A DNA stretch of 64,000 bases from positions 142,538,001 to 142,602,000 of the forward strand of contig NC_091989.1 of NCBI RefSeq assembly GCF_044704955.1, given 5' to 3'. Below the pieces are notes generated by a model that had not been told where the DNA came from, did not search any database, and worked only from the letters and a program-made list of their open reading frames with translations. Source of the DNA: Pristiophorus japonicus (Eukaryota). The position numbers and the translations under genes were made by a program. Below are positions 906 to 64,000 of the stretch, in pieces (the first letter of the stretch is position 1; every line of letters starts with the position of its first letter).

Positions 906-1959
906 ATACATTCACCCAATATTCTGGCTCTTTTCTTGTATATGTCTCCAAGTTGATATATATCCAACTCTATTTCATCTTGACTGTTCAGTGGCCTTTA
1001 ATGCACAATTAAAATTGTACAGGTACTATAAATATTTCCCTTGTTCGTTCTTAACACAGATCCATATGCGGTCTTGAGGTGAAGAAGGGTTGCAGGACAG
1101 GGGAATATTGAAGTAATCCAGTCCCCATTTTTACAAAGTCATGTATTCTGTCCTTACTTTGCTTACTACATTCAGTTAATATTTATTTATAGTCAAATAC
1201 CCTGCAGCAAAATATACAGCAATTTGGAAAGCAGAGAAGTAGGGCTAGCCGTAGCAGTTTCTCTGCAATGGAGGGTGAAGGACCAGGAGGTGCAAAACTG
1301 AGGTGTTAGTGACTTTTACTGGCAGGAGTGAGAGAAATTTACATAGAACATTTCCATTATTAATGTGGACATTAGAATTTAGAATGATCAAAGTTTACCG
1401 GATGTGCTTGCAAACCTAAGATTTTAAATATATTATCGATGATGCCCCTTAAATGAGATGGGAGTTTATATTGTGTTGCTACGAGTGAGTATTTAACATT
1501 TCACTACCTCATCTCTAATGTGCAAACATAATCTGGCAGATTTAGTCAAGCTTCATAATTGCTTTTACCTTATCAAACATTGGGTTTGTGTTCACTGAGA
1601 GGTTTTCCAAATGGATCCGTTTTAGTTTACAATAATGCCATAGAAGAATTCTCCAACTAGAAATATCTATTGAGTGCTTCAGGTTCAAGATTGCAGTGTA
1701 ATGGTCCATCAATGATAAAAATGTCTCGACAACATTTTATAAACCATTTCAAGACTAATTAGTATCCTCGAGACTTGGATCATGTTTTGAGGAAGTAGAT
1801 TTGTCAAATATAATGAGCGGCCTTTATTTCTAGTTTGTAGCTACGACACAAAATACAATTTACAAAACCTTAAGCAAATAGATTTATATAAGTCATTGTA
1901 TAAACTGATGCACAATTTTATGAACAGAAGACACTCAATTGACACACATTACTATATAT

Positions 1960-4392
1960 TGAGCAACAGCATTTATATAGCGCCTTCATAGGAGCGCAAT
2001 CAGCCAGAAATTGCCACCAAGTCAAAGAAGGAGATATTATGGAGGTTTTATGAAGGTTCTTAAAGAAGGAGCGAGAGGCGGAGAGGTTTAGGAAGGGAAT
2101 TCCACAGTTTAGGGAATTCCAATTGTAACCCCACTATTTAAAAAAGAAGGGAGAGAGAAAACTGGGAACGACAGACCGGTTAGCCTAACATCAGTAGTAG
2201 GGAAAGTGCTAGAGTCTATTATAAAGGATGTGATAATGGGACACTTGGATAATATCAACGGGATTCAACAAAGTCAACATGGATTTATGAAAGGAAAATC
2301 GTGCTTGACAAACCTACTGGAGTTTTTTTGAGGATGTAACTGATGGAATAGATAAGGGAGAACCAGTGGATGTAGTGTATTTGGATTTTCGGAAGGCATT
2401 TGACAAAGTCCCACATAAGAGGTTAGTGTGCAAAATTAAAGCCCGTAGGATAGATACTGGCATGGATTGAAAATTGGCTAACTGACAGGAAACAGGGAGT
2501 AGGAATAAACGGGTCTTTTTCGGGGTGGCGGGCAGTGACTAGTGGGGTACCACAGGGATCAGTGCTTGGGGCCCCAGCTATTCACAATATATATATAAAT
2601 GATTTGGATGACGTAACTAAATATAATATTTCCAAGTTTGCTGACGACACAAGACTAGGTGGGATTATGAGTTGTGAGGAGGATGCAAAGACACTGCAAG
2701 GCGATTTAGATAGGTTGAGTGAGTGGACAAACATATGGCAGATGCAGTATAACGTGGATAAATGTGAAGTTATCCACTTTTTGGTAGGAAAAACATAAAT
2801 ACAAAGTACTATTTAAATGGTGATGGCTTGGGAAGTGTCGATGTACAGAGAGACCTAGAGGTCCTTGTACACCAGTCATTGAAAGCAAACATGCAGGTGC
2901 AGCAAGCAGTTAGGAAGACAAATGGTATGTTGGCCTTCATTGCAAGAGGATTTGAGTACAGGAGCAAGGATGTCTTACTACAGTGATACTGGGCCTTGGT
3001 GAGACTACACCTGGAGTATTGTGTGCAGTTTTGGTCTCCTTAAGAAAGGATATACTTGCCATAGAGGGAGTACAGCGAAGGTTCACCAGACTGATTCCTG
3101 GGATGGCAGGACTGTCGTATGAGGAGAGATTGGGTCGACTAGGACTAGAGTTTAGAAGAATGAGAGGGGATCTCATTGAAACATATAAAACTCTGGGTTG
3201 GACAGACTAGATGCGGGGAGGATGTTTCCCCTGGCTGGGAAGTCTAGAACAAGGGGTCACAGCCTCAGGATACAGGGTAGGAAATTTAGAACTGAGATGA
3301 GAAATTTCTTTACTCAGAGGGTGGTAAACCTGTGGCATTCTCTACCACAGAAGGCTGTGGAGGCCAAGTCACTGAATATATTTAAGAAGGAGATAGATAG
3401 ATTTCTAGACACAAAAGGCATCAAGGGGTATGGGGAGAAAGTGGGAATATGGTGTTGAGATAGAGGATCAGCCATGATATTGAATGGTGGTGCAGGCTCG
3501 AAGGGCCGAATGGCCTATTCCTGCTCCTATTTTCTATGTTTAGGGCTTAGATAGCTGAAGGCACAGCTGCCAATGGTGGGGTTAAGATAGTGGGGATGAA
3601 TGAAAGTCCAGAACAGTGGTGGAACACAGTTCTCTGAGGCTTGTAGAGCTGGAACAGGTTACAGAGATAGAGAAGGGAGAGGCCAAGGAAGGATTTGAAC
3701 ACGAGGATGAGAATTTTAAATTTGAGGTACTGATGGACTGGAAGCTGATGTAGATCAGTAAGCACAGGCGTGATGGATTAGTGGGATTTGGTACAGGCAG
3801 TAGAGTTTTGGATGAGCTCATGTTAATGTACGGTGGAAGATGGGAGGCCAGCCAGGAGACAATTAGAATAGTCAAGTTTGGAGGTGATAAAAGCACAGAT
3901 GGGGGTTTCAACTGCAGGTGGGCTGAGGCAGATGAAGAGACGGATGATGTAACAAAGGTTGAAGTAGGCTATCTTTGTGACTGAAAGTATACAGGTTTGG
4001 AAGCTCAGCTCAGGGTCAAATAAGTTGCTGAGGTTGTGAACAGTCTGGTTCAGCTTGAGACGGCCGGAGAGGGTGATAGAATCAGTGGCGAAGGAACAGA
4101 GTTTGTGGTGGGGGCTGAAGATAATGGCTTTGGTCTTCCCAATGTTGGAGGAAATTGTGGCTTATCCTGGACTGGATGTCAGACAAGCAGGCTGACAACT
4201 TGGAGGCAGTGGAGGGGTCGAGAGAGGTGGAGGTGAGGTAGAACTGGTTGTCGTTAGCGTACACGTGGAACTTGACGTCATGTCTTCGGCTGATGTCGCC
4301 GAAGGACAGCGCGTAGATAAGAAATAGGAGCGGGCTGAGGATAGATTCTTTGGGAACTCCAGAGGCAGGGGTGCACGGTTGGGAAGAGAAGC
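1960..4392 (-). mobile_element. Degenerate L2-clade LINE, interrupted by a CR1 and a second LINE; resumes briefly at about 8332-8375
   Basis: Minus-strand ORF remnants LHQLPVHQYLKFKILILVFK (L2 C-terminal motif) and YANDNQFY (YADD region); 3' tail gcatttatatagcgcc near 1970. Confidence 0.75.
2115..3540 (+). mobile_element. 5'-truncated CR1 LINE (RT and 3' UTR)
   Basis: [15 protein letters not shown] and RRMRGDLIE motifs; tail cctgctcctattttctatgt; flanking direct repeat gtttaggg at 2107-2114 and 3538-3545. Confidence 0.9.
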
Positions 4393-22213: not shown

Positions 22214-22314
22214 GACTATTCAGTTAAGTCGTTGGAAGATCTGTGTTTTTAACAATGATGTACATTTCTTTTTACTTTTTTACAAATCAGTATCAAAATA
22301 AGACAGATTGGACA

Positions 22315-22366
22315 ATGAACTGCTTTCTAGTTGAATTGATGATATTTTACATTGTCTCTTTAGGAG
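22315..22366 (+). CDS. IgSF receptor exon 1: signal peptide
   Basis: ATG, MNCFLVELMIFYIVSLG (hydrophobic core), then consensus donor ag|gtaagt in phase 1; in frame with the V exon. Confidence 0.75.
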
Positions 22367-24530: not shown

Positions 24531-24872
24531 CAACCTTGGAGGTGGTGGTCAGCCCAGCTGTGTTCAGTGCCACAATTGGTGAAAGTGTCCTGCTAGGCTG
24601 CTTATTTTCTCACACCGCTGAGCTTGATTTGAGATACATTGTGATTGAATGGAACCACAGAGTGGGAGATGATGAAAAAGCAGTTTGTTTATTCGACTTT
24701 GGAGAATATGAAAGCTATAGACCAGGATCAAGTCTCTTTTTAAATGAGATAAGCAAAGCAAATGCTTCTTTGCTCATAAAAAATGTTACTATTCATGACA
24801 TTGGATCATATTCCTGCACAGTTTCAATATCTCCTGATAAAGCAAGGGGGCAAGTTACTCTGTCAGTCACAG
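24531..24872 (+). CDS. IgSF receptor exon 2: Ig V-set domain (B7-H6/NCR3LG1/tapasin-related-like)
   Basis: cag|ca...aca g|gtgagt, phase 1-1, 342 nt; GESVLLGC, IEW, ANASLLIKNV, DIGSYSC (DxGxYxC). Confidence 0.93.
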
Positions 24873-37829: not shown

Positions 37830-40045
37830 GTGAGTAATAATAAAGGAGAATGGTATCTAGTAGATGACGAGAAACATTTTATTTTACTGATTCTAATATT
37901 GTATGAATTCTGTTTTTTTTCACTTACGGAAACTTGATTTGAATTTGTGTATCAACAGATGGGTCACTATAAGGAACAGACACTATCCAGTTCCTACAAA
38001 TGTAAACATCTGTTCCTTGCAATGAGCCTCGCCACATTTTCATTCTGGCCCAGCTTTTCTTTGTCGTTCAGATTGTTCTTTGTTCGCCTGTTCTTTGAAA
38101 TGCGGAGAATTTTTGAATGTTGTTCAGAAAACGTTCACTGAGATATTACAATAGAAATACTAACGAATTTTCATCTGAATTTACTAGAAATGTACAAGAC
38201 TACAAAGCAGTAGTATTGTTATATTCTATTCTGAATATTAATACCAGGGCTAGAGTTTCCTCATTTTTTGCATGCTTAATGCCCACTTAACGTCCATTTT
38301 ACTGATGAAATGACGTGCAACACCCATATATCGGCCATTTAGCCACAAAATGGAAACTGACAGGCATTTTTCGGAAACTTATCGGCGAGCGTTACTTTCC
38401 CCATGTGCGTAATACTGGGAAAAAATAATACCGCCTGTTATGTATGTAAACATTGTAACTGTGTAAGACTTGCCATCAGAAGGCGCAACTGTTGGAGGCC
38501 CAAGGGTCTCCTGCAAGGGAGTATAAAAGGTTGTCTGCCATGCTTCTTAGGCACTCTGGAGTTGTATTAAAGAGACTAAGGTCACATCAGTTTTAGCTCA
38601 CAGTACTCAGTCTTGTGGAGTTCTTCCATACATAACAATTGGTGACGAGTAACAGATTACGAACTTTTATGCGGTCATGGCTGCCATTGGTATTTTAGAG
38701 AGATTTGTAGAGGATGATGATTGGGAAGCCTTCGTTGAGTCTCTCGACCAGTACTTCGTGGCCAATGAGCTGGATGGGGACGATAAAGCGATCAAGCGCA
38801 GGGCGATTCTCCTTACCGTGTGTGGGTCCACAATATATGGCCTCATCAAGAATCTGCTAACACCAGAGAAACCAGCGGAGAAGACATATACAGAGTTGTG
38901 TACGCTGGTTCGGAACCACCTCAAACTGAAGGAGAGCGTCTTAATGGCTTGGTATCGCTTCTACACACACCACCGCTTTGAGGGCCAGGACATGGCGTGT
39001 TATGTCGCCGACCTGAGACGCCTTGCGGGAACTTGCTAATTTGCTGGATTTTTGGGGGGAATTGCTGCGGGACTTTTTTGTGCTTGGCATCGGCCACGAG
39101 GTCATTCTTTGCAAGCTGCTGCCTGCCGAATCCCTAGACCTGAGCAAGGCCATCACGATAGCCCAGGCATTCTTATCCACGAGCGACAATACCAGACAGA
39201 TATTTTCCCAGCATCAAAGCTCACTGGCAAGTACTGTGCATAAAATAACGTCATTAGCAGGCAGAACTGCATATGGCAGGGCCTACACATCTGCAGTTGC
39301 AGGACCTAGGATGACTCAGAGTCTGCCATCGGGCATGAATGCAAATCCATTAGCATCATGTTGGTGCTGCGGGGGTAATCATCGAGCCCATCAATGTCGA
39401 TTCAAGCACTACGTGTGCAAAGGCTGCGAAACAATGGGGCACCTCCAGTGAATGTGCAAGAGTGCTGCGACTCACCACGTGGCAGATTCAGCAGAGGATG
39501 ATCGATCCGGCACAGATCGCGCAGAACAAGCAAGATAGGCAACTCAACCCAAGGAAGAAGTGTATGGGGTAAACACCTTCACCACCAAGAGCCCTCCTAT
39601 TATGCTGAAAGTCAAATTGAACGGTATTCCGGTATCAATGGAGTTGGACACGGGGTCGAGTCAGTCAATTATGAGCCAGAAGGCTTTTGAGAAACTGTGG
39701 GGCAACAAGGCCCAAACTGAGCCCGATTCAGACAAAGCTGCGCACTACACCAAAGAGCTCATACTAGTCATTGGCAGTGCGGCAGTTAAGGTATTGTATG
39801 ATGGAGCTGTGCATGATTTATCACTGTGGATTGTACCAGGCGATGGCCCAACGCTATTCGGCAGAAGCTGGCTGGGAAAGATTCGATGGAGCTGGGACGA
39901 CATCAAAACACTATCTTTCGTGAATGATGCCTCGTGCGCCCAAGTGCTGAGCAAGTTTCCATCGCCATTTGAACCAGGCATCGGCAACTTCACAGGCGCC
40001 AAGGTGCAGATCCATCTAGTCCCTGATGCAAGGCCCGTTCCATAT

Positions 40046-40598
40046 CATCATCATCATCATCATCATAGGCAGTGCCTCGGAATTGAGGAAGACTTGCTTC
40101 CACTCCCAAAGTGAGTTCTTTGATGGCTGAACAATCGATACGAGAGCCACAGACCCTGTTACAGGTGGGACAGACATTCGTCGGGGGAGGGGATCGGTAG
40201 GGCTGGTTTGCCGCGTGATCCTTCCGCTGCCTGCGCTTGGCCTCTTCATGCTCTTTGCATTGAGACTCGAAGAGCTCAACGCCCTCCCGGATGGACTGTC
40301 TCCACCTCGGGCGGTCTGCGGCCAGAGTCTCCCAGGTGTCAGTGGTGATGTCGCACTTTACCAGGGAGGCTTTGAGGGTGTCCTTATAACGTTTCTGCTG
40401 TCCTCCTTTGGCTCATCTACCTGAAGGAGCTCCGCATAAAGCATTTGCTTAGGGAGTCTCGTATCTGGCATGCAAACTATGTGGCCTGCCCAGCGAAGCT
40501 GATCGAGTGTAGTCAATGCTTCAATACTGGGGATGTTAGCCTGGTCGAGGACACTGATGTTGGTGCGCCTGTCCTCCCAGGGGATTTGCAGGATCTTG
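40046..40598 (-). mobile_element. RTE-clade LINE 3' fragment inserted in Gypsy A pol
   Basis: (cat)n tail; similar to 26471-26892; removal restores ARPVPY|MMREKVEIELDRL. Confidence 0.85.
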
Positions 40599-42444
40599 AT
40601 ATATGATGAGGGAGAAAGTCGAGATCGAACTGGACAGACTTCAATGAGAGGGAATCATATCGCCAGTCGAGTTCAACGAGTGGGCCAGTCCGATTGTTCC
40701 GGTGTTGAAAAGTGATGGCACGAACAGAATCTGCAGACACTACAAGGTAACGATCAACCGAATCTTATTACAAGACCAGTACCTGCTACCCAAGGCAGAT
40801 GACCTGTTCGCAACGTTAGTGGGGGGAGGGAAGTCATTCACCAAGTTGGACCTAACCTCCGCCTATATGACACAGGAGCTGGCTGAATCTTCAAAAAGAT
40901 TGACGTGCATCAACACACACAAAGGACTGTTTATATACCACAGGTGCCCTTTTGGGATTCGCTCGGCTGCTGCCATCTTCCAGAGGAACATGGAGAGTCT
41001 GCTGAAATCGGTTCTGCGCATCGTTGTGTTTCAAGATGACATCCTGATCACCGGTCGTGACATCACCGAACACCTGCACAACCTGGAAGAGGTTCTAAGT
41101 CAATTAGACAGAGTGGGACGCAGGCTGAAATGCTCCAAGTGTGTTTTCCTGGTGCCAGAGGTCGAATTTTGGGGGAGAAAGATTGCGGCAGATGACATCA
41201 GACCCACGGACTCAAAGACAGTGGCCATCAAGAATGCACCCAGACCACAGAATGTGACGGAGCTGCGTTCGTTCCTGGGACTCCTCAACTATTTTGGTAA
41301 CTTTCTACCTGGGTTAAGCACTTTGCTGGAACTGTTGCACATGTTGCTACGTAAGGGTGACGACTGGGTTTGGAGTAAATCTCAAGAGACAGCCAGAAAC
41401 CTACTTTGTTCTAATAAGTTGCTTGTACTGTATGATCCGTGTAAACAATTAGTGCTAGCTTGTGATGCATCTTCATACGGGGTCGACTGTGTGTTACAGC
41501 ACACCAATGTATCGTGCAAACTTCAACTGGTTGCATACGCGTCTAGAACATCTAGAAGTCTGTCTAAGGCTGAAAGAGCCTACAATATGGTCGAGAAAGA
41601 GGCATTAGCATGTGATTATGGGGTTAAAAAAATGCACCAATACTTATTTGGACTTTGGTTTGAGCTTGAAACCGACCACAAACTACTCATTTCGCTGTTT
41701 TCAGAAAGCAAAGGTATAAACACCAATGCTTCGTCCCGCATCCAAAGATGGGCACTAACATTGTTCGCCTATGACTATGTTATAGAAACATAGAAAATAG
41801 GTGCAGGAGCAGGCCATTCGGCCCTTCGAGCCTGCACCGCCATTTCATATGATCATGGCTGATCATGCAACCTCAGTACCCCACTCCTGCCTTATCTCCA
41901 TACCCACTGAGCCCTTTAGCTGTAAGGGCCACATCTAACTCACTTTTGAATATGTCCAACGAACTGGACTCAACAACTTTCTGTGGCAGAGAATGCCACA
42001 GGTTCACAACTCTCTGGGTGAAAAAGTTTCTCCTCATCTCGGTCCTATATGGCTTACCCCTTATCTTCAGATTGTGACCCCTGGTTCTGGACTTCCCCAA
42101 CATCGGGAACATTCGACCTGCATCTAACCTGTCCGGTCCCGTCAGAATTTTATAAGTTTCTATGAGATCCCCTCTCATTCTTCTAAATTGCAGTGAGTAT
42201 AAGCCTAGCCGATCCAGTCTTTCCTCATATGTCAGTCCTGCCATCCCAGGAATCAGTCTGGTGAACCTTCACTGCACTCCCTCAAAAGCAAGCACGTCCT
42301 TCCTCAGATTAGGAGACCAAAACTCACACAATACTCAATGTGTGGTCTCACCAAGGCCCTGTACAACTGCAGTAAGATCTCCCTGCTCCTATACTCAAAT
42401 CCCCTCGCTGTGAAGGCCAGCATGCCATTTGCTTTCTTTGCTGC

Positions 42445-48097: not shown

Positions 48098-51000
48098 TGT
48101 AAAGTCCTGTCCCCTCAGTACAGATTCACACGAGGCATGTAGTGAAGTCAAGGTCACTCTGGACCTGCACCTTTTATTTCACAGCTCTGGAATGCTGCAC
48201 TTGCCTGAGACCTGTGCTTATATACCTGTCTCTTGCAAGTGTACCCCCGGTGGTAAGGTATGCTGGTGGTTACAGGTCATATCTTATTACAGTCATGTAT
48301 AGCATGTTGGGATACAGTTATATATAATAATGTAAGATCCATGACATCACCCTCCTCCAAGGTCTTATTGTCTTTATAAGTTCAGTCTCTCAGGTGGTCT
48401 ACGCTCTCGCGTGGAGCGTCTGAGTTGTGGTTCAGTTGTTTGCCTTGGTGTCTGTTTTTCTTTGGGTGTGGTTGCTGGTATCTAGCCTGGGCTGTCTGTT
48501 TCGATTGGTGTGATTGTTGTTGACTCACCTGGGCTGTCTGTTGGGATTGCCCTTTCCTCAGGTTGTTCCCTCTGTCTGTCCACCAGGTGTGGTGTGAGTT
48601 CCACATTGTAGTCTGCCTGTGGTTCCGCAGTGCTGTTGGTAAATCTGCTTTTGACTTGGTCTACATGCCTCCGGCAGGTTTGGCCATTGTCCATTTGTAT
48701 TACCAGTAACCTGTTTCCTTCCTTGCCCGTTACTGTCCCTGCAAGCCATTTGGGACCCCTGCCATAGTTTAGTACAAACACTTTGTCCCCGATCTCATTC
48801 CATCTCTCCCTCGAATTTCTGTCATGGTACTCAGTCAGCTTACGGCGCTTTGCCTCAATGATTTCGTGCCTGTCTGGGAGGATTAATGAGAGCCTTGTTT
48901 TTAAAGTCCTTTTCATCAACAGTTGCGCGGGGGGGATCTCAGTCAGTGAGTGTGGACGAGATCTGTATGCCAACAACAGTCGCGACAGGCGACCCTGCAG
49001 CTTGGGACCTTGGATTTTAAGCATGCCTTGTTTAATGATTTGCACTGCTCTCTCCGCCTGGCCGTTGGAGGCCGGCTTGAACGGTGCCGTCTTGACGTGA
49101 TTTATGCCGTGGTCAATTATAAAGTCTTGGAATTCTGCGCTGGTGAAGCACGGACCATTGTCACTGACTAATATGTCAGGGATTCCGTGCGTTGCAAACA
49201 TGGTTGCGAGGCTCTCCACAGTGGTGGAGGTTGTGCTCGAGTTTAAAATGGTGCATTCGATCCACTTTGAAAATGCATCTACAACTACGAGGAAAATTTT
49301 GCCCATAAATGGGCCCGCATAGTCTACGTGCACCCGCGACCACGGTTTGGTAGGCCAGGGCCAGGGGCTCAGTGGAGCCTCCCTGGGGGCATTGCTGAGT
49401 TGGGCACAAATGGTACACCTTCGGACGCAGAGCTCCAAGTCTGCGTCAATACCAGGCCACCAGACGTGGGATCTGGCTATGGCCTTCATGAGAACGATCC
49501 CCGGATGCTCACGGTGGAGCTCCCGGACAAATGCCTCTCTGCCTCGCAGAGGCATGACTACTCGGCTGCCCCACATCAGGCAGTCTGCTTGTAGTGATAG
49601 CTCATGCATGCGCCTGTGAAAGGGTTTTAATTCCTCGGGGCAGGCATCGCGAGCCTCTGCCCAACCTCCGGTTAGGACATATCTTTTTACTAAGGATAAC
49701 GTGGGGTCGCTGGCCGTCCAGGCTCTGATTTGGTGAGCCGCCATGGGCGAACCTGTGGACTCAAAGGCATTGATTGCCATGACTATCTCACAGTCCTGTT
49801 CGTCAGACCCTTCTGTGGTCGCCAGGGGTAGCCTGCTGAGCGCGTCGGCACAGTTGTCTGTGCCTGGTCTGTGCCTTATGGTATAGTCGTAGGACGCCAG
49901 CATGAGTGCCCACTGTTGAATTCGCGCTGAGGCGTTGGCGTTTATTGCCTTGCTCTCGGATAGGTGGGACGTGAGGGGCTTGTGGTCGGTTTCTAACGCG
50001 AACTTGGCCCCAAAAAGGTATTGGTGCATCTTTTTGACACCGTACACGCACGCGAGCGCCTCCTTCTCTACCATTCCGTACCCACGCTCCACCCGCGAAA
50101 GTGATCTGGAGGCATAAGCTATGGGTTGTAATTTGCCTGCACCATTGACATGTTGCAAAACGCACCTGACCCCATATGCTGACGCATCGCATGTGAGAAC
50201 TAGCTTTTTACCTGGATCAAAGAAAGTCAAAACAGTGTTGGAACATAGAAGGTTGCATGCCTTATTGAAGGCGCGTTCCTGGGCGTCCCCCCAAAACCAA
50301 TCGCACCCCTTCCTGAGTAGCACGTGGAGAGGCTCCAGCAGCGTGCTTAAGTTCTGCATAAAGTTCCCAAAGTAATTGAGTAGCCCGAGAAAGGCGCGCA
50401 GTTCTGAGACATTCCGGGGCCTGGGTGCCAGGCAAATTGCTTCTGTTTTGGACTCTGTTGGGCGGATTCCATCAGCGGCAATCCTTCTGCCCAAAAATTC
50501 AACCTCGGGTGCGAGAAACAGGCACTTGGATTTCTTGACTCGTAGGCCTACCCGATCCAACCACTTTAGTACTTCCTCCAAATTACGGAGATGGGAGTCG
50601 GTGTCCCTGCCCGTGATAAGTATGTCGTCTTGAAATACAACCATCCCCGGGATAGACTTGAGCAGACTCTCCATGTTGCGCTGGAATATGGCAGCTGCCG
50701 ACCTGATGCCGAATGGGCATCGATTGTACATGAAAAGGCCTCGATATGTGTTGATGGTGGTGAGTAGCTTGGATTCCTCGGTCAATTCTTGCATCATATA
50801 CGCAGATGTGAGGTCTAATTTTGAGAAAAGTTTACCTCCAGCCAATGTGGCAAATAAGTCCTCTGCTCTGGGCAGCAGGTACTGGTCCTGTAGGGAGACT
50901 CTGTTTATGGTAGATTTGTAGTCCCCACAGATTCGTACGGATCCATCGGGCTTCATGACTGGGACGATGGAACTTGCCCAGTCGCTAAATTCCACAGGTG

Positions 51001-52838
51001 ATATAATGCCTTCCCGCAGAAGCCTGTCTAGTTCGTGTTCAATCTTTTCCCTCATCACATAGGGTACAGCTCTGGCCTTGTGATGGACCGGTCTAGCATC
51101 CTGTGTGATGTAGATTTTGACTTTGGCCTCTTTGAAAGTGCCCACACCTGCCTGAAAGAGATGTTCAAATCGCTTTATAACTGTTGAGCAGGAGGTCCGT
51201 TCCTCTAATGACATGGCATGGACATCATCCCATTTCAAGTTTAGTTTTGCCAGCCAGCTTCTCCCCAGCAGTGCTGGGGGGTCTCCGGGGACAATCCACA
51301 GGGGAAGTCGGTTCACTGTCCCTTTGTGTGTGACAGAGAGCATGGCGCTGCCGAGGACTGGTACGATTTCTTTGATATAGGTCCTTAGTTTGGTGTCGAC
51401 CCTTGTGAGTTTTGGTCTGTCTCTTTTATGCGGCCACAGTTGTTCAAATTGTTGAGCGCTCATGAAAGATTGACTCGCTTCTGTATCCAGCTCCACGTTG
51501 ACAGATATCCCATTGAGTAGGACCCTCATCATTATAGGAGGCGTCCTGTCGTAGGAGCAGCGGCCATTGATTGTGTTGACCCGCTGTACATCGGTGTCCC
51601 GAGTACTGACCCCACCGTCTTCTGATCCGCTTTCCGACCCATCCGATCCGCATACCAGCCGAGCTGCCGTTTTTTTGCACATGCGGGCCAAATGCCCTGT
51701 ATATTCACAGTTCCTGCAAACAGCCTGCTGAAATCGACATTCCCTTGACGAGTGCCCACCCCCACACCTCCAGCACAGACTGCATGCAAAGAATGAGCTG
51801 CGTCTGGCTGATCTCTCTTGAGCTTCTCTCAGTTTGTAGTTGATTACTCGCATTGTGGGTTGATGAGGTGTGAACGGCCGTTCCTGTGGCCCTTGATGGC
51901 TTCTGTTGCCACTGCTTGCTGTCAAAAACCTGTTCTGCCGGTTTTGTCTGTGTGTGGGGGTAGCAGCTTTTCTAATGCTGTGAACTCCTTTTTCCATTAT
52001 TTTGTTAGTTGTTGTACCTGCATTGTAAATCAACCTCGGTTCTTCTTCCCCTACCAAGAATGTCTGTGCAACCAGTGCTGCTGCCTCTACGGTCAGGTTC
52101 TTGGTCTCTATGAGCTTTTGGAATAGGCCTGCGTGGCCTATTCCTTCAATGAAAAAGTCTCTCAGCATTTCTCTCCTCAGTTCATCGGAGATCTCAGATA
52201 AACTAGCCAACCTCCGAAGTTCCACCACAAAGTTGGGTATGCTCTGGCCCACACAGCATCTGTAGTTGTAGAACCTGTGGCTGGCCATGTGTAGGCGGCT
52301 CGCTGGCTTCAGGTGGTCTCTTACCAGTGTGCTCAATTCTTCAAACGACTTGCTTGCTGGTTTCTCAGATGCCAACAGATCCTTCATTAAAGCGTATGGT
52401 TTCGAGCCACAGCTGGTCAAGAGATGGGCTCTTCTCTTGTTTGCTGTATCGTCGCCTAACCAGTCTTTGGTTACAAAGCTTTGCTGGTGCCTTTCTATAA
52501 AGTCCTCCCAATTGTCTCCCGCATTGTACTTTTCATCTGATCCGTTGTTCGCCATTCTGTGGATTCTGTAATCCCGTAACCGTCGCCACTGTAAAGTCCT
52601 GTCCCCTCAGTACAGATTCACACGAGGCATGTAGTGAAGTCAAGGTCACTCTGGACCTGCACCTTTTATTTCACAGCTCTGGAATGCTGCACTTGCCTGA
52701 GACCTGTCCTTATATACCTGTCTCTTGCAAGTGCACCCCTGGTGGTAAGGTATGCTGGTGGTTACAGGTCATATCTTATTACAGTCATGTATAGCATGTT
52801 GGGATACAGTTTTATATAATAATGTAAGATACATGACA
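48098..52838 (-). mobile_element. Gypsy LTR retrotransposon B, structurally complete
   Basis: 249-bp LTRs 48098-48346 and 52590-52838 (about 5 mismatches by eye); TSD ctact 48093-48097 / 52839-52843; PBS tggcgacg 52581-52588; PPT next to 48347. Confidence 0.97.
48482..52555 (-). CDS. Gypsy Gag-Pol polyprotein, 1357 aa
   Basis: Single ORF: CCHC knuckles, protease (DTE in place of DTG), RT FQDD, RNase H (CDAS, TDH), integrase HHCC and DDE core. Confidence 0.93.
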   Translation of the reverse strand: MANNGSDEKYNAGDNWEDFIERHQQSFVTKDWLGDDTANKRRAHLLTSCGSKPYALMKDLLASEKPASKSFEELSTLVRDHLKPASRLHMASHRFYNYRCCVGQSIPNFVVELRRLASLSEISDELRREMLRDFFIEGIGHAGLFQKLIETKNLTVEAAALVAQTFLVGEEEPRLIYNAGTTTNKIMEKGVHSIRKAATPTHRQNRQNRFLTASSGNRSHQGPQERPFTPHQPTMRVINYKLREAQERSARRSSFFACSLCWRCGGGHSSRECRFQQAVCRNCEYTGHLARMCKKTAARLVCGSDGSESGSEDGGVSTRDTDVQRVNTINGRCSYDRTPPIMMRVLLNGISVNVELDTEASQSFMSAQQFEQLWPHKRDRPKLTRVDTKLRTYIKEIVPVLGSAMLSVTHKGTVNRLPLWIVPGDPPALLGRSWLAKLNLKWDDVHAMSLEERTSCSTVIKRFEHLFQAGVGTFKEAKVKIYITQDARPVHHKARAVPYVMREKIEHELDRLLREGIISPVEFSDWASSIVPVMKPDGSVRICGDYKSTINRVSLQDQYLLPRAEDLFATLAGGKLFSKLDLTSAYMMQELTEESKLLTTINTYRGLFMYNRCPFGIRSAAAIFQRNMESLLKSIPGMVVFQDDILITGRDTDSHLRNLEEVLKWLDRVGLRVKKSKCLFLAPEVEFLGRRIAADGIRPTESKTEAICLAPRPRNVSELRAFLGLLNYFGNFMQNLSTLLEPLHVLLRKGCDWFWGDAQERAFNKACNLLCSNTVLTFFDPGKKLVLTCDASAYGVRCVLQHVNGAGKLQPIAYASRSLSRVERGYGMVEKEALACVYGVKKMHQYLFGAKFALETDHKPLTSHLSESKAINANASARIQQWALMLASYDYTIRHRPGTDNCADALSRLPLATTEGSDEQDCEIVMAINAFESTGSPMAAHQIRAWTASDPTLSLVKRYVLTGGWAEARDACPEELKPFHRRMHELSLQADCLMWGSRVVMPLRGREAFVRELHREHPGIVLMKAIARSHVWWPGIDADLELCVRRCTICAQLSNAPREAPLSPWPWPTKPWSRVHVDYAGPFMGKIFLVVVDAFSKWIECTILNSSTTSTTVESLATMFATHGIPDILVSDNGPCFTSAEFQDFIIDHGINHVKTAPFKPASNGQAERAVQIIKQGMLKIQGPKLQGRLSRLLLAYRSRPHSLTEIPPAQLLMKRTLKTRLSLILPDRHEIIEAKRRKLTEYHDRNSRERWNEIGDKVFVLNYGRGPKWLAGTVTGKEGNRLLVIQMDNGQTCRRHVDQVKSRFTNSTAEPQADYNVELTPHLVDRQREQPEERAIPTDSPGESTTITPIETDSPG

Positions 52839-54062
52839 CTACTCAGCTACCAGACGCGATCCCACTCACTCACTGGGGTTCCCCCTGCAGAATTGTTAAT
52901 GAAGAGAACACTCAAAACCAGGCTCTCCCTAGTCCACCCGGATCTAAATGATCATGTGGAAAACCGGCGTCACCTGCAAAACATGTACCACGATCGCGCG
53001 GCTGTATCGCGTGACATTGATGTTAACGATCCTGTGTTTGTCCTTAATTACGGTCATGGTTCAAAATGGGTCGCTGGCACTGTCTTGGCTCAGGAGAGGA
53101 AGAGAGTGTTTATAGTCAAACTATTGAATGGACAAATGTGCAGAAAGCATTTGGATCAGACCAAACTGCGGTTCACCGACAACCAGGAACAACCTGAAGA
53201 GGACATCACCATCATCGATCCACCAACACACACCCAACCAGCAATTGACCTCGCTGTCAATCAAGAGGATGAACCCACCAGTCCCAACAGTCCTGTCAGA
53301 CCAGCCGCGCCGTAGTGCAGCAATGGTCCGACCAACTCACCCATGCCAGAGTTTGAACTCAGACGATCAACCAGGGAGCGTAGGGCACCGATCGTCTCAA
53401 TTTTTAAATAATTTGTATCAAAGACTTTGGGGGAAGTGATGTTATGTATGTAAACATTGTAACTGTGTAAGACTTGCCAACCAGAGGGCACAACTGTTGG
53501 AGGTCCAAGGATCACCTGCACACCTCGTGCAAGGGAGTGTAAAAGGTTGTCTGCCATGCTGCCATACGTAACACCGCCCACCCACTTATTGGGGGCGGAA
53601 TCATCAGAATGGGTGAAATCAACGCCCATAATATCGCCCAGCGTTACTTTCCACATGAAATTAACGCCGAGATTCAATAATACCGCCCGCCCACTTTTTT
53701 TTGTTGTAAAGATCATATTTCCCGAAACTAGCAGCCATGAGATCGCCCAGCGACACTTTCACCACCTCGCACACATATCGCCCACAATATCGTTTGCCCA
53801 AAAAAATGCCCAGAAAAAGAAGAACTAACTGGAACTAATTACAGCGTTATGGATGTCATGTTCGAGATTACATGTCACATCCTTTAAAAGGCTGCTGTGC
53901 TTCAACCTCGGGGGAGTTCAGATGTACTCTGGAGGTCATTGGAATTGATGTGAACATCTGTACAAACATCTTGACCATACTGTGGACGATTGGAATTTAA
54001 TAGGTCTTCATTGGGACATTCGTTGTTTGAGACCAATCGGTGGAAAACAGAGTGCTATTGCA

Positions 54063-55266
54063 ATGGGGCCTGTCCTTTCTCACCCTCTCTTGATGACCAC
54101 TTACATGCTGCAGACTCGAGATGGCAGAAGGTACGCTCCACAGCATCATGTGCCCAATGTAAGACGTGCCAGACTGATGAGGAGGACCAGACGTTGCACT
54201 CCCCGCAAATACAGGAAGAAGCAGTCTTACCTCAACTTGCCTGACATCACCTGCCTTCCGAAACTGCGCTTTCACAAAGAGGTTATCACTGAAGTATGCC
54301 AGCTGATAAGAGCAGATCTACATCCTGCCAGCATCATCAGAACTGCACTGTCTGTCGAGGTCAAAGTCACCGCGGCACTGTCGTTCTACGCGTCGGGTTA
54401 TTTTCAGGCCTCACCTGACGACATTTGTGGTCTGTCTCAGCATGCCACATATTGCTGCATTAGACAGGTCACTGAAGCCCTGTACGCACACAGGAGGAAC
54501 TTGATCAGCTTCCCTATGACCAAGGAGACACAGAGTGAGAGGGCTCTAGGATTCTCCAGAATTGCAAACTTTCCCAAGGTGCAGGGAGCAATAGATTGTA
54601 CGCACATCACGATGCGGGCACCTTTTCAGGGTGCAGAGGTTTTCAGGAACCGCAAGGGACTCCACTCCCTGAATGTGCAACTCCTTGTCGACCACCAGCA
54701 AATTATAATGGCAGTGAATGCTAAATTTCTGGGCAGCATCCATGATGCTCACATCCTACGTCAGAGCATTGTACCTGACTTGTTTAAGAATCAGCCACAA
54801 GGTCAATGCTGGATGCTTGGTGATAAAGGATATGGCCTCGCCACCTGGCTGATGACCTCCCTGCATGACACCCACACCGAAGCCGAGAGGCGATACAACG
54901 AGCGCCACAAAGCCATTCGCAATATCGTGGAGAAAACCATTGGAGTACTGAAGCAGCTTTAGTTGCCTGGACCACTCAGGAGGCAAGCTCCAATACCACC
55001 CTGAGCAAGTAGCTCAATTCGTGATGGTGTGCTCCATGCTGCACAACTTGGCTATCAGGAGGGGACAGGAATTGCCTGATCAGTCTGACAGTCCACCTCA
55101 GCAGAGAGAGGAAGAGGAGGACGAGGAAGCAGACGCTGAAGTCGGCCCAAACAATCAGGCTGATGCTGAAGCCATGCCCCCGCCCCCCTGTAGACTGCTT
55201 GAAAGGGCCCGTGGTGGCATGATAGCTGCAAGAGCCTTACGTCAGGAGCTCATCATGCCACCATGA
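54063..55266 (+). pseudogene. Harbinger (HARBI1-like) DDE transposase, frameshifted near 54958
   Basis: GAIDCTH, FRNRKG, HDAHIL, LGDKGY, RNIVEKTIGVLK; continues in another frame as CLDHSGG...CSMLHN. Confidence 0.9.
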
Positions 55267-58831: not shown

Positions 58832-59272
58832 TGGCTCCCAAAGTGACAGATATTATTAAACCAAGACACTTCCATAAGGATGACCCACTCTCTCTGGTTT
58901 GTGCAGTTCTCTGGTTCAAACCGAAAGCAATCCGTGTCTCTTGGTACAGAGAGGAAGCAGGCAAATTCCAGAGAGTTCTCATCAGTAAATGGGACAGCAC
59001 CACATCTTCTGTAAAACAACGTGAATACAGAAGGATAGAAGATTACTTTCAGAGTGATCATGAGCAAGACAAAACAATGCACTTCGCAGAAGGAGAATAT
59101 GACATTACCATGACTTTGAATAATCACAAAGAAAGTGGAACATACAGTTTAATATCTCAGCTCATCTTCAGATATGCAGAAGCTGCAAAAGGAAGTCAGA
59201 CATATTTTTTTGAAGTCAAGCACAACTCTTTAAAGCAAACTATCTCAAAAGTAGCTGTTTTGGAAATTAAAG
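58832..59272 (+). CDS. IgSF receptor exon 5: post-TM C1-like Ig domain lacking the second Cys
   Basis: tttttcag|tg...aaa g|gtgagt, phase 1-1, 441 nt; APKV, LVCAVLWFKPKAIRVSW, SGTYSLISQL, YFFEVKHNSL. Confidence 0.88.
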
Positions 59273-62560: not shown

Positions 62561-62998
62561 GTGCTTGTGACAATACTGAATATTTTCCATCAAAAATGAA
62601 ACGGCAAGACTGGGCAATGCATGCTATTGAAGAAGGCCGTCGTACTGTGGTTAATTACATCAGCCCAAACATACTACCACTCTTAAAGCTTTTGATGGAG
62701 AAGAAAATAATCTCTGAAGATGACCACAATGTAGTAAAAGATAAACCAGACGTTGATAAAGGGCGAACCCTTCTCGACATGCTGAGCCACAGAGGTCAGC
62801 AGCCATGTGCTAATTTTTTCAATGTGCTGCAAGGCACTGAAGACCTTTATCCTGGCATAAAGGAGTATATAAAATTACTGCTGGAATCCTACATTGACAA
62901 GGATGACAGGCCAATTATTGATCTTCTCCATGAAGACCTGCCAACTGTCAGATTTGAGGTCAACAACGAAAAAATCAGAATAACCGATTTTCCTGAAG
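62561..62998 (+). CDS. Exon encoding a CARD-like death-fold domain plus linker; probable exon 6 of the IgSF receptor
   Basis: aag|gt gct tgt...cct gaa g|gtaagc, phase 1-1, 438 nt, no stops; IEEGRRTVV...LLKLLMEKKIISEDDH...KGRTLLDMLSHRGQQPCANFFNVL...YP fits the CARD helical pattern. Confidence 0.8.
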
Positions 62999-64000
62999 GT
63001 AAGCATGCTTTGTCAAAGGTGATGTCTTACATGTTAACAATGAATAGGCATCTCCCTGCTTAAGGCTCCAGTATCATTAATAGTTTGGACCTATTTATCT
63101 GAAAGTTCTTTAATACTGATGGATGGAAACACAATTTAAACCTTATTACAGATAAAATATCAAAGTACTCTGTAATAATATAGGTTTATCCTAGTGTTTC
63201 AGTTTCCTTATTTGACTGAGGTGAGTACCTATTGTTGGATTGATCATGCTTCGTTTGAAATCTTCACACATAAAGTGAGCAATTTTAATCCCTGGTTTTG
63301 GTTGGGGCAGCTGCAGCAGGAGACCTCCAGAGTTATTCGCAAGCAACTCAATGAACATCGCTTCTCCTAAACTGCTCCCTTCCCCATACTCCCCTCCATT
63401 TCCCGACCAGAGTAGCATTCCTCGGGGATTTCTGGATTGGTTTAGATGGAAGCCATGACAGTGCATGGTACATTGGAGGGAATGAGCTCATTGGGCATAA
63501 AGCCCTTTCTGATTCCATGGCTTCTTATTCCCACTTTCACTTTCAGTTACAGTATATGTCACAGGGTGTTCAATTCACATGGCATTGCTATCTCATTTTT
63601 ATTGAGTAAAAAGGTACAGGCACTTTAAAGAACAATTTATACACCAGATTTCGCAGAATGTATATTAAAAAAATGAAACCAAAATTATAACCAAGAGATT
63701 AGATTTTTATTTGGGAATCTTGCCTGGACCAGAATTCTCTGAGGAATTTGGAAGAAGTGACATTTTTCCTTTTCTGGAATACAAAGCACTGAGACCCAGC
63801 AGAGAGCAGATTGAGGATGACGAATGATATGTGAACTATGGTACAAGGTGAAACTAATTACATTGTTTAAGGTATAATTTTTTACCCATCCATAACAATT
63901 CACATTTGCTACATTCAGGATGTGTCTAGACTTGTTGTGTCACTGTACAGATGATCACACCAATACAGGTTGTATTTTGAAAATAATGTGACAACCAAGT

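Follow-up and report, generated by a model that had tools for sequence, protein, structure and literature searches.

Organization of the locus

The window analyzed here is a 64,000-nucleotide stretch of the Pristiophorus japonicus genome (G000:C13:142538001-142602000), and features beyond position 64000 are given in window-extended coordinates, which continue its numbering. The 1,340-aa protein P0002 maps exactly onto 13 GT-AG exons, six of them in the window and seven within the next 14 kb (Table 1), with introns 1 to 6 all in phase 1. Its architecture is signal peptide-V-C1-TM-C1-CARD-NACHT-WH-HD2-LRR. The original prediction, which concerned exon 5, missed the remainder of the gene, namely, the CARD, NACHT, and LRR exons that follow. 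The gene model begins exon 1 at 22255, and the Met that aligns with the starts of the orthologs lies at 22315.

Table 1. Exons of the fusion gene in and beyond the window
Feature	Position	Strand	Remarks
Exon 1, putative signal-peptide exon	22255..22366	+	Predicted from hydrophobicity and the phase-1 intron
Exon 2, IgV	24531..24872	+	Both Cys present in 15/15 species
Exon 3, extracellular C1	37500..37829	+	With V, top PDB Ig match B7-H6
Exon 4, single predicted transmembrane (TM) segment	58180..58290	+	Invariant Cys
Exon 5, C1-like	58832..59272	+	Phe at the F-strand Cys site; ~35-residue insert
Exon 6, CARD and linker	62561..62998	+	Pfam E 1.5e-9; 3.3 kb downstream of exon 5
Intron 6, start	62999..64000	+	Runs past the window end
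NACHT-WH-HD2 exon	64523-66263 (window-extended)	+	Beyond the window end
Six LRR exons	69050-77308 (window-extended)	+	Beyond the window end

A protein search with exon 5 recovered 10 proteins, which all combine the Ig, NACHT, and LRR families; two of them are 100% identical and bear the UniRef label Pristiophorus japonicus NLRC3-like. The same architecture is common to 15 species of sharks and rays (compared as orthologs through one protein model each), among them the nurse shark (QTT61908.1). The P. japonicus genome has a single copy of the fusion gene, and the NACHT exons that come closest to it are only 34-35% identical. Searches of chimaeras, skates, and bony vertebrates, which were word-limited or crowded by repeat proteins, did not reveal the fusion. 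Each of the 15 proteins has one clear TM minimum on a hydrophobicity scale, and of the 30 V and exon 3 C1 domains in these species, 29 retain both Cys; the extracellular C1 of Narcine (P0013/P0215) has a Ser for the B-strand Cys. Mean pairwise identity over 12 species is 75-76% for V and C1, 85% for WH-HD2, and 86% for the LRRs, with the NLR part as a whole spanning 75-86%. Database isoform models from two distant species (P0001 and P0014) skip the CARD exon. Further, an in-frame Met stands at the CARD start in six of nine species, from which a soluble NLR form could be made.

Exon 3 and the TM exon are separated by 20 kb of repeat-filled intron. On the minus strand of this intron, at 48482-52606, lies a 1,374-aa open frame of an LTR retroelement that we take to be Gypsy-type, further broken copies of which occupy 38653-41793, and on the plus strand, at 53949-55266, are transposase frames, presumably Harbinger-like. 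Elsewhere on C13, at ~142,657,000-142,700,000 (L008-L012), a non-LTR retrotransposon that we assume to be Tx1-like forms a head-to-tail array with a period of ~7.2 kb; several copies have open frames of ~703 and ~1,306 aa.

A C1-derived domain without the canonical disulfide

Splice and frame analysis of the window shows exon 5 to have AG/GT ends, 441 nt in phase 1-1, and no stop, and to follow the TM exon directly. It contains the C1 hallmarks LVCAVLWFKP, VSW, GTYS, and EVKHNSL, and it reads YFFEVKH at the site where exon 3 has YFCEVSH, all as originally predicted. The Pfam C1-set model scores 23.7 bits against a cut-off of 21, although it covers only residues 15-41. An AlphaFold model built from 11 sequences is a beta-sandwich (pLDDT 68, with the insert at 59-79 below 50), which matches the C1 domain of B7-H6 (Z 11.3, rmsd 2.0, 97 residues aligned) and, equally well, Ig constant domains and some V domains; the Foldseek matches are Ig domains exclusively, and exon 5 is accordingly predicted to have an Ig fold. 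The F-strand position is Phe in all 15 shark and ray species, so that the B-F disulfide of the canonical C1-set is absent throughout, and the B-strand Cys, the C-strand Trp, and the His adjacent to the Phe are invariant. Judged from its sequence, the domain is C1-derived and non-canonical, and the Phe presumably fills the room left by the lost disulfide.

The proposal that exon 5 is not decaying is supported by this invariance, by the spliced contigs described below, and by a rough dN/dS of ~0.34 (Fisher p 0.036; 8 synonymous and 11 nonsynonymous changes over 193 nt), which is based on 19 listed of 32 differences between exon 5 and the contig of another organism. It is nonetheless the least conserved folded domain of the protein, with a mean pairwise identity of 64% versus 75-86% for the others (12 species). 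A homodimer of the domain, predicted without an alignment, scored 0.23 against a mark of 0.32, which speaks neither for nor against dimerization. The Mustelus model (P0005) has residues 1-33 of exon 5 twice, probably as an artefact of the model or assembly.

Two arguments of the original prediction fared less well. Exon 5 indeed has no sequons, against five in the V and C1 domains upstream; however, reading this as adaptation to the cytosol is unsupported, since the domain carries at least one sequon in 11 of the 15 orthologs and 63% of shuffled exon 5 sequences are sequon-free. The CARD-NACHT-LRR part has 8-15 sequons. Likewise, the basic HKR flank of the TM segment had been taken as a sign of type I topology, but in 12 of 15 species the flank on the N side is at least as rich in K/R, and the flank charges do not favor type I. 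The cytosolic location itself remains likely, because exon 5 is continuous with the CARD-NACHT-LRR part and the protein has a single predicted TM segment; on these grounds, we hold type I topology with a cytosolic exon 5 domain to be very probable.

Origin of the B7H6-like half

The ectodomain (V plus C1) has human B7-H6 as its best PDB match (E 9e-28), followed by CD276 (2e-22) and TAPBPR (2e-17). Proteins from Heptranchias (P0015), Amblyraja (P0094), and Xenopus (XB5846708, P0016) show the same V-C1 ectodomain and single TM segment, followed by tandem C1 domains, and the first of these post-TM domains, like exon 5, has a long insert and lacks the F-strand Cys. These genes differ from the fusion gene in continuing with further C1 domains, whereas the latter has one C1 and then the CARD-NACHT-LRR part. 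The cytoplasmic-Ig precedent in amphibian B7-H6-like genes, which had been suggested in the original prediction, is thus borne out at the sequence level. Taken alone, the exon 5 domain is an existing B7H6-like type and not a new one, and the loss of its Cys, previously ascribed to adaptation of this gene, is probably older, as a trait inherited from the B7H6-like family. In a tree of 29 domains, exon 3 joins the ectodomain C1 of B7H6-like proteins (99/98); exon 5 falls with their cytoplasmic C1-1/C1-2, although weakly and with a long-branch warning (90/87). The same tree, under that warning, lends no support to a recent duplication of exon 3 as the source of exon 5.

A cluster of eight B7H6-like V exons, two with a stop, lies at G000:C14:176.67-177.62 Mb (L002, L014, L064-L074), together with a gene with an array of tandem C1 exons. 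RPS13 and NCR3LG1, which encodes B7-H6, are linked in human, and an intron-containing RPS13 at C14:178.56 Mb, ~1 Mb from these V exons, marks the cluster as probably the syntenic B7H6 locus. A second RPS13 copy, at C11:165,727,500, is intronless, open, and retrocopy-like. By this one marker, the fusion gene on C13 is away from the RPS13-linked cluster, and NKp30 binding may for that reason have been lost. We propose that a B7H6-like gene (V-C1-TM-cytoplasmic C1 array) would have given rise to a relocated copy, cut past the first cytoplasmic C1, that fused, within a phase-1 intron, with a CARD-NACHT-LRR gene, and that this fusion would date from before the split of sharks and rays.

At another place on C13 (21,815,000-21,872,000, minus strand; L057, L059, L069, L076-L085) are two tandem units, each with a B7-type V exon ~10 kb upstream of NACHT and LRR exons. 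Between the copies the V and NACHT are 87% alike; a candidate TM exon was found in one copy only, and one V lacks the first Cys. Their NACHTs group with Ig-less NLRs of frog, gecko, and shad, apart from the fusion gene. Going by exon order, the pair is possibly a second Ig-NLR fusion.

The NLR half

Downstream of exon 5 the protein has NACHT motifs, an HD2, LRRs, and a CARD N-terminal to the NACHT, with the Walker A Lys, Walker B Asp and Glu, sensor-1 Arg, and WH His invariant in 15/15 species. The soluble cytosolic character of CARD-NLRs is predicted to be absent in all 15, which have a putative signal-peptide exon and one predicted TM segment. The CARD is modeled as six helices, and its top fold matches are all CARDs; the best match is ICEBERG by sequence (E 1e-6) and the NOD1 CARD by fold (E 0.05). 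The nearest solved NACHT is that of NOD2, and the NACHT of the fusion is ~30% identical to all others found.

In a NACHT tree of 34 rows, obtained from 104 candidates by a redundancy cut and with a CIITA-like row that was too short, the family forms its own clade (100/100, stem 0.84), placed weakly beside an expanded NLRP-like group (80/62). Genome rows labeled NOD2, NLRC5, and NLRX1 carry these names presumptively, on the basis of motifs. The NACHT of the fusion is, in these comparisons, a separate lineage. An NLRC3 identity was rejected: true NLRC3 (P0067, P0079, L050) is a separate clade, and a joint clade has a p-AU of 0.029. A placement of the family as sister to NOD1/NOD2 is absent from the best tree, and its p-AU of 0.0585 does not reject it. 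Shark NOD1 copies are described in PMC8455134. The fusion gene, on C13, is not one of these NOD1-A/B/C copies, a tandem triplet near MTURN, because the three near-identical NOD1-like NACHT exons of this genome lie on C5, no more than 1 Mb from MTURN, and CTH lies on C8.

When 88 other NACHT proteins were compared with the CARD profile of the family, a single one matched, lamprey P0158 (E 1.2e-5), a soluble CARD-NACHT-LRR protein of 844 aa. A sister relationship of P0158 to the NLR half (p-AU 0.044) is unsupported by the NACHT tree; a relative of the donor NLR is a possible status for it.

Splicing across exon 5

Splicing was surveyed in four of nine listed runs, over the exon 5-CARD-NACHT junctions. 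Though none of the runs used is recorded as RNA, we take them to be transcript-derived because their contigs are spliced. A contig of 3,698 nt from run X8 contains three exons in direct succession, with 0-1 mismatches: exon 5 at 546-986, CARD at 987-1425, and NACHT at 1426-3168. The 545 nt 5' of exon 5 would fit the TM exon, exon 3, and part of V. The depth of this contig, 66.8, recurs at two sites in the TM exon. In run X1, of another organism and study, a contig of 1,507 nt also joins the exon 5, CARD, and NACHT exons, with equal depth at the TM sites, and runs X9 and X2 each contain the CARD-NACHT junction. Hence, exon 5 is spliced into the CARD exon in contigs of two organisms, and skipping of the TM exon, a concern attached to the original prediction, is not indicated where inclusion is judged by equal contig depth, short-read contigs giving junctions and not whole molecules.

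Relationship to known systems

The nurse shark ortholog QTT61908.1, which we guess stems from Kinlein 2021, has 1,318 aa and the same domains, and its GenBank name, B7H6, ignores the NLR half; the chromosomal position of the P. japonicus gene suggests that this entry represents a relocated paralog rather than the syntenic gene. The NLR half resembles NOD1, NOD2, NLRC4, and NLRC3 in its CARD-NACHT-WH-HD2-LRR series with intact nucleotide motifs; those proteins are soluble, whereas the fusion protein is predicted to be membrane-anchored. To our knowledge, vertebrate NLRs have been viewed as sensors that are soluble, and the tails of B7 ligands as simple. Transmembrane NLRs are known in the sea cucumber (PMC13133943) and in anemones (PMC5094078), the latter with 3-5 N-terminal TM segments against the one predicted here. 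A precedent for signaling by an Ig outside and a NACHT inside is sea cucumber AjNLRC4, which, unlike the shark fusion, has two TM segments and no CARD or LRR (PMC8699970). We infer an origin independent of these sea cucumber and anthozoan proteins because the V-C1 domains of the shark gene are B7-type.

We found no description of the fusion architecture in the literature searched, the key B7H6 papers lying outside its coverage. The accessible portion of PMC8455134 mentions no Ig- or TM-bearing NLR, and its unclassified NLR accessions were unmatched to the fusion gene; the portions available of PMC10751288, PMC10173190, PMC10450919, PMC11599192, PMC6514059, PMC3964593, and PMC12227049 leave the gene unmentioned. 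That the architecture has already been remarked on in print is a real prospect, if not quite an even one, and with the nurse shark ortholog in GenBank, the sequence is known to specialists.

Functional interpretation

Taking these findings together, we favor by a modest degree the reading that exon 5 encodes a disulfide-free C1 spacer in a conserved, membrane-anchored fusion NLR that would signal on ectodomain clustering. In such a type I membrane protein, the exon 5 domain would be a folded spacer holding the CARD-NACHT-LRR part under the membrane. Binding by an NKp30/NCR3-family receptor would cluster the B7-H6-like ectodomain, the clustered NACHT would oligomerize at the membrane, and the CARD would recruit RIPK2 or caspase-1/ASC, resulting in reverse signaling into the ligand-bearing cell. 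We give the step from ectodomain clustering to signaling about an even chance.

Any such scheme presupposes one gene, and a fusion could be spurious if read-through or annotation had merged neighboring genes, one short and B7H6-like, the other coding for a soluble NLR. The repeat-filled intron ahead of the TM exon, the Met at the CARD start, and the largely automated nature of the database records speak for this; yet the frame of exon 5 stays open up to its donor, the exon is joined to the CARD exon in both organisms' contigs, the frame is the same in 15 species, and no Ig-less close relative appeared among the proteins and genome loci searched. A merger of two genes is therefore highly improbable, and we are nearly certain that the gene encodes a real fusion protein.

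Given a single gene, the membrane part might do no more than set the location of a tethered cytosolic sensor whose LRRs detect a cytosolic or endosome-derived ligand, much as NOD1 and NOD2 are located by lipidation. The conservation of the LRR and WH-HD2 regions, the highest in the protein, and NOD2 as the nearest solved NACHT fit this idea, which we rate as unlikely, although a serious contender: NLR cores are conserved in general anyway, and V and C1 retain more identity, and more of their disulfides, than an anchor needs. Less probable still is a non-inflammatory scaffold or dampener, in which an NK-receptor ligand has a tail that restrains signaling, in the manner of NLRC3, or binds the cytoskeleton through its cytoplasmic Ig. 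This reading would suit the CARD-skipped isoform models, a CARD nearest to the inhibitor ICEBERG, and the example of the intracellular Ig of sea cucumber AjNLR-new, which binds actin and Fidgetin (PMC13133943); against it stand the invariant ATPase motifs and the rejected clade with true NLRC3.

Returning to the clustering-driven fusion NLR, its broadest form is a vertebrate transmembrane NLR in which an NK-receptor ligand of the B7-H6 type nucleates a CARD platform in the target cell, with Ig-NLR fusion having arisen possibly twice in sharks; this we put forward tentatively, the chances being against the whole. On a firmer footing, both database labels, NLRC3-like and, for the nurse shark, B7H6, are corrected by the architecture described here. 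The exon 5 domain, as a disulfide-free cytoplasmic C1 of a kind that other genes have too, offers a model of how an Ig domain can be stable when its canonical disulfide is missing. Conserved in full in sharks and rays alike, the fusion is predicted to be a natural coupling of recognition outside the cell to NLR oligomerization within it, and if this is true, contact with a lymphocyte would lead directly to an inflammasome- or nodosome-type output.
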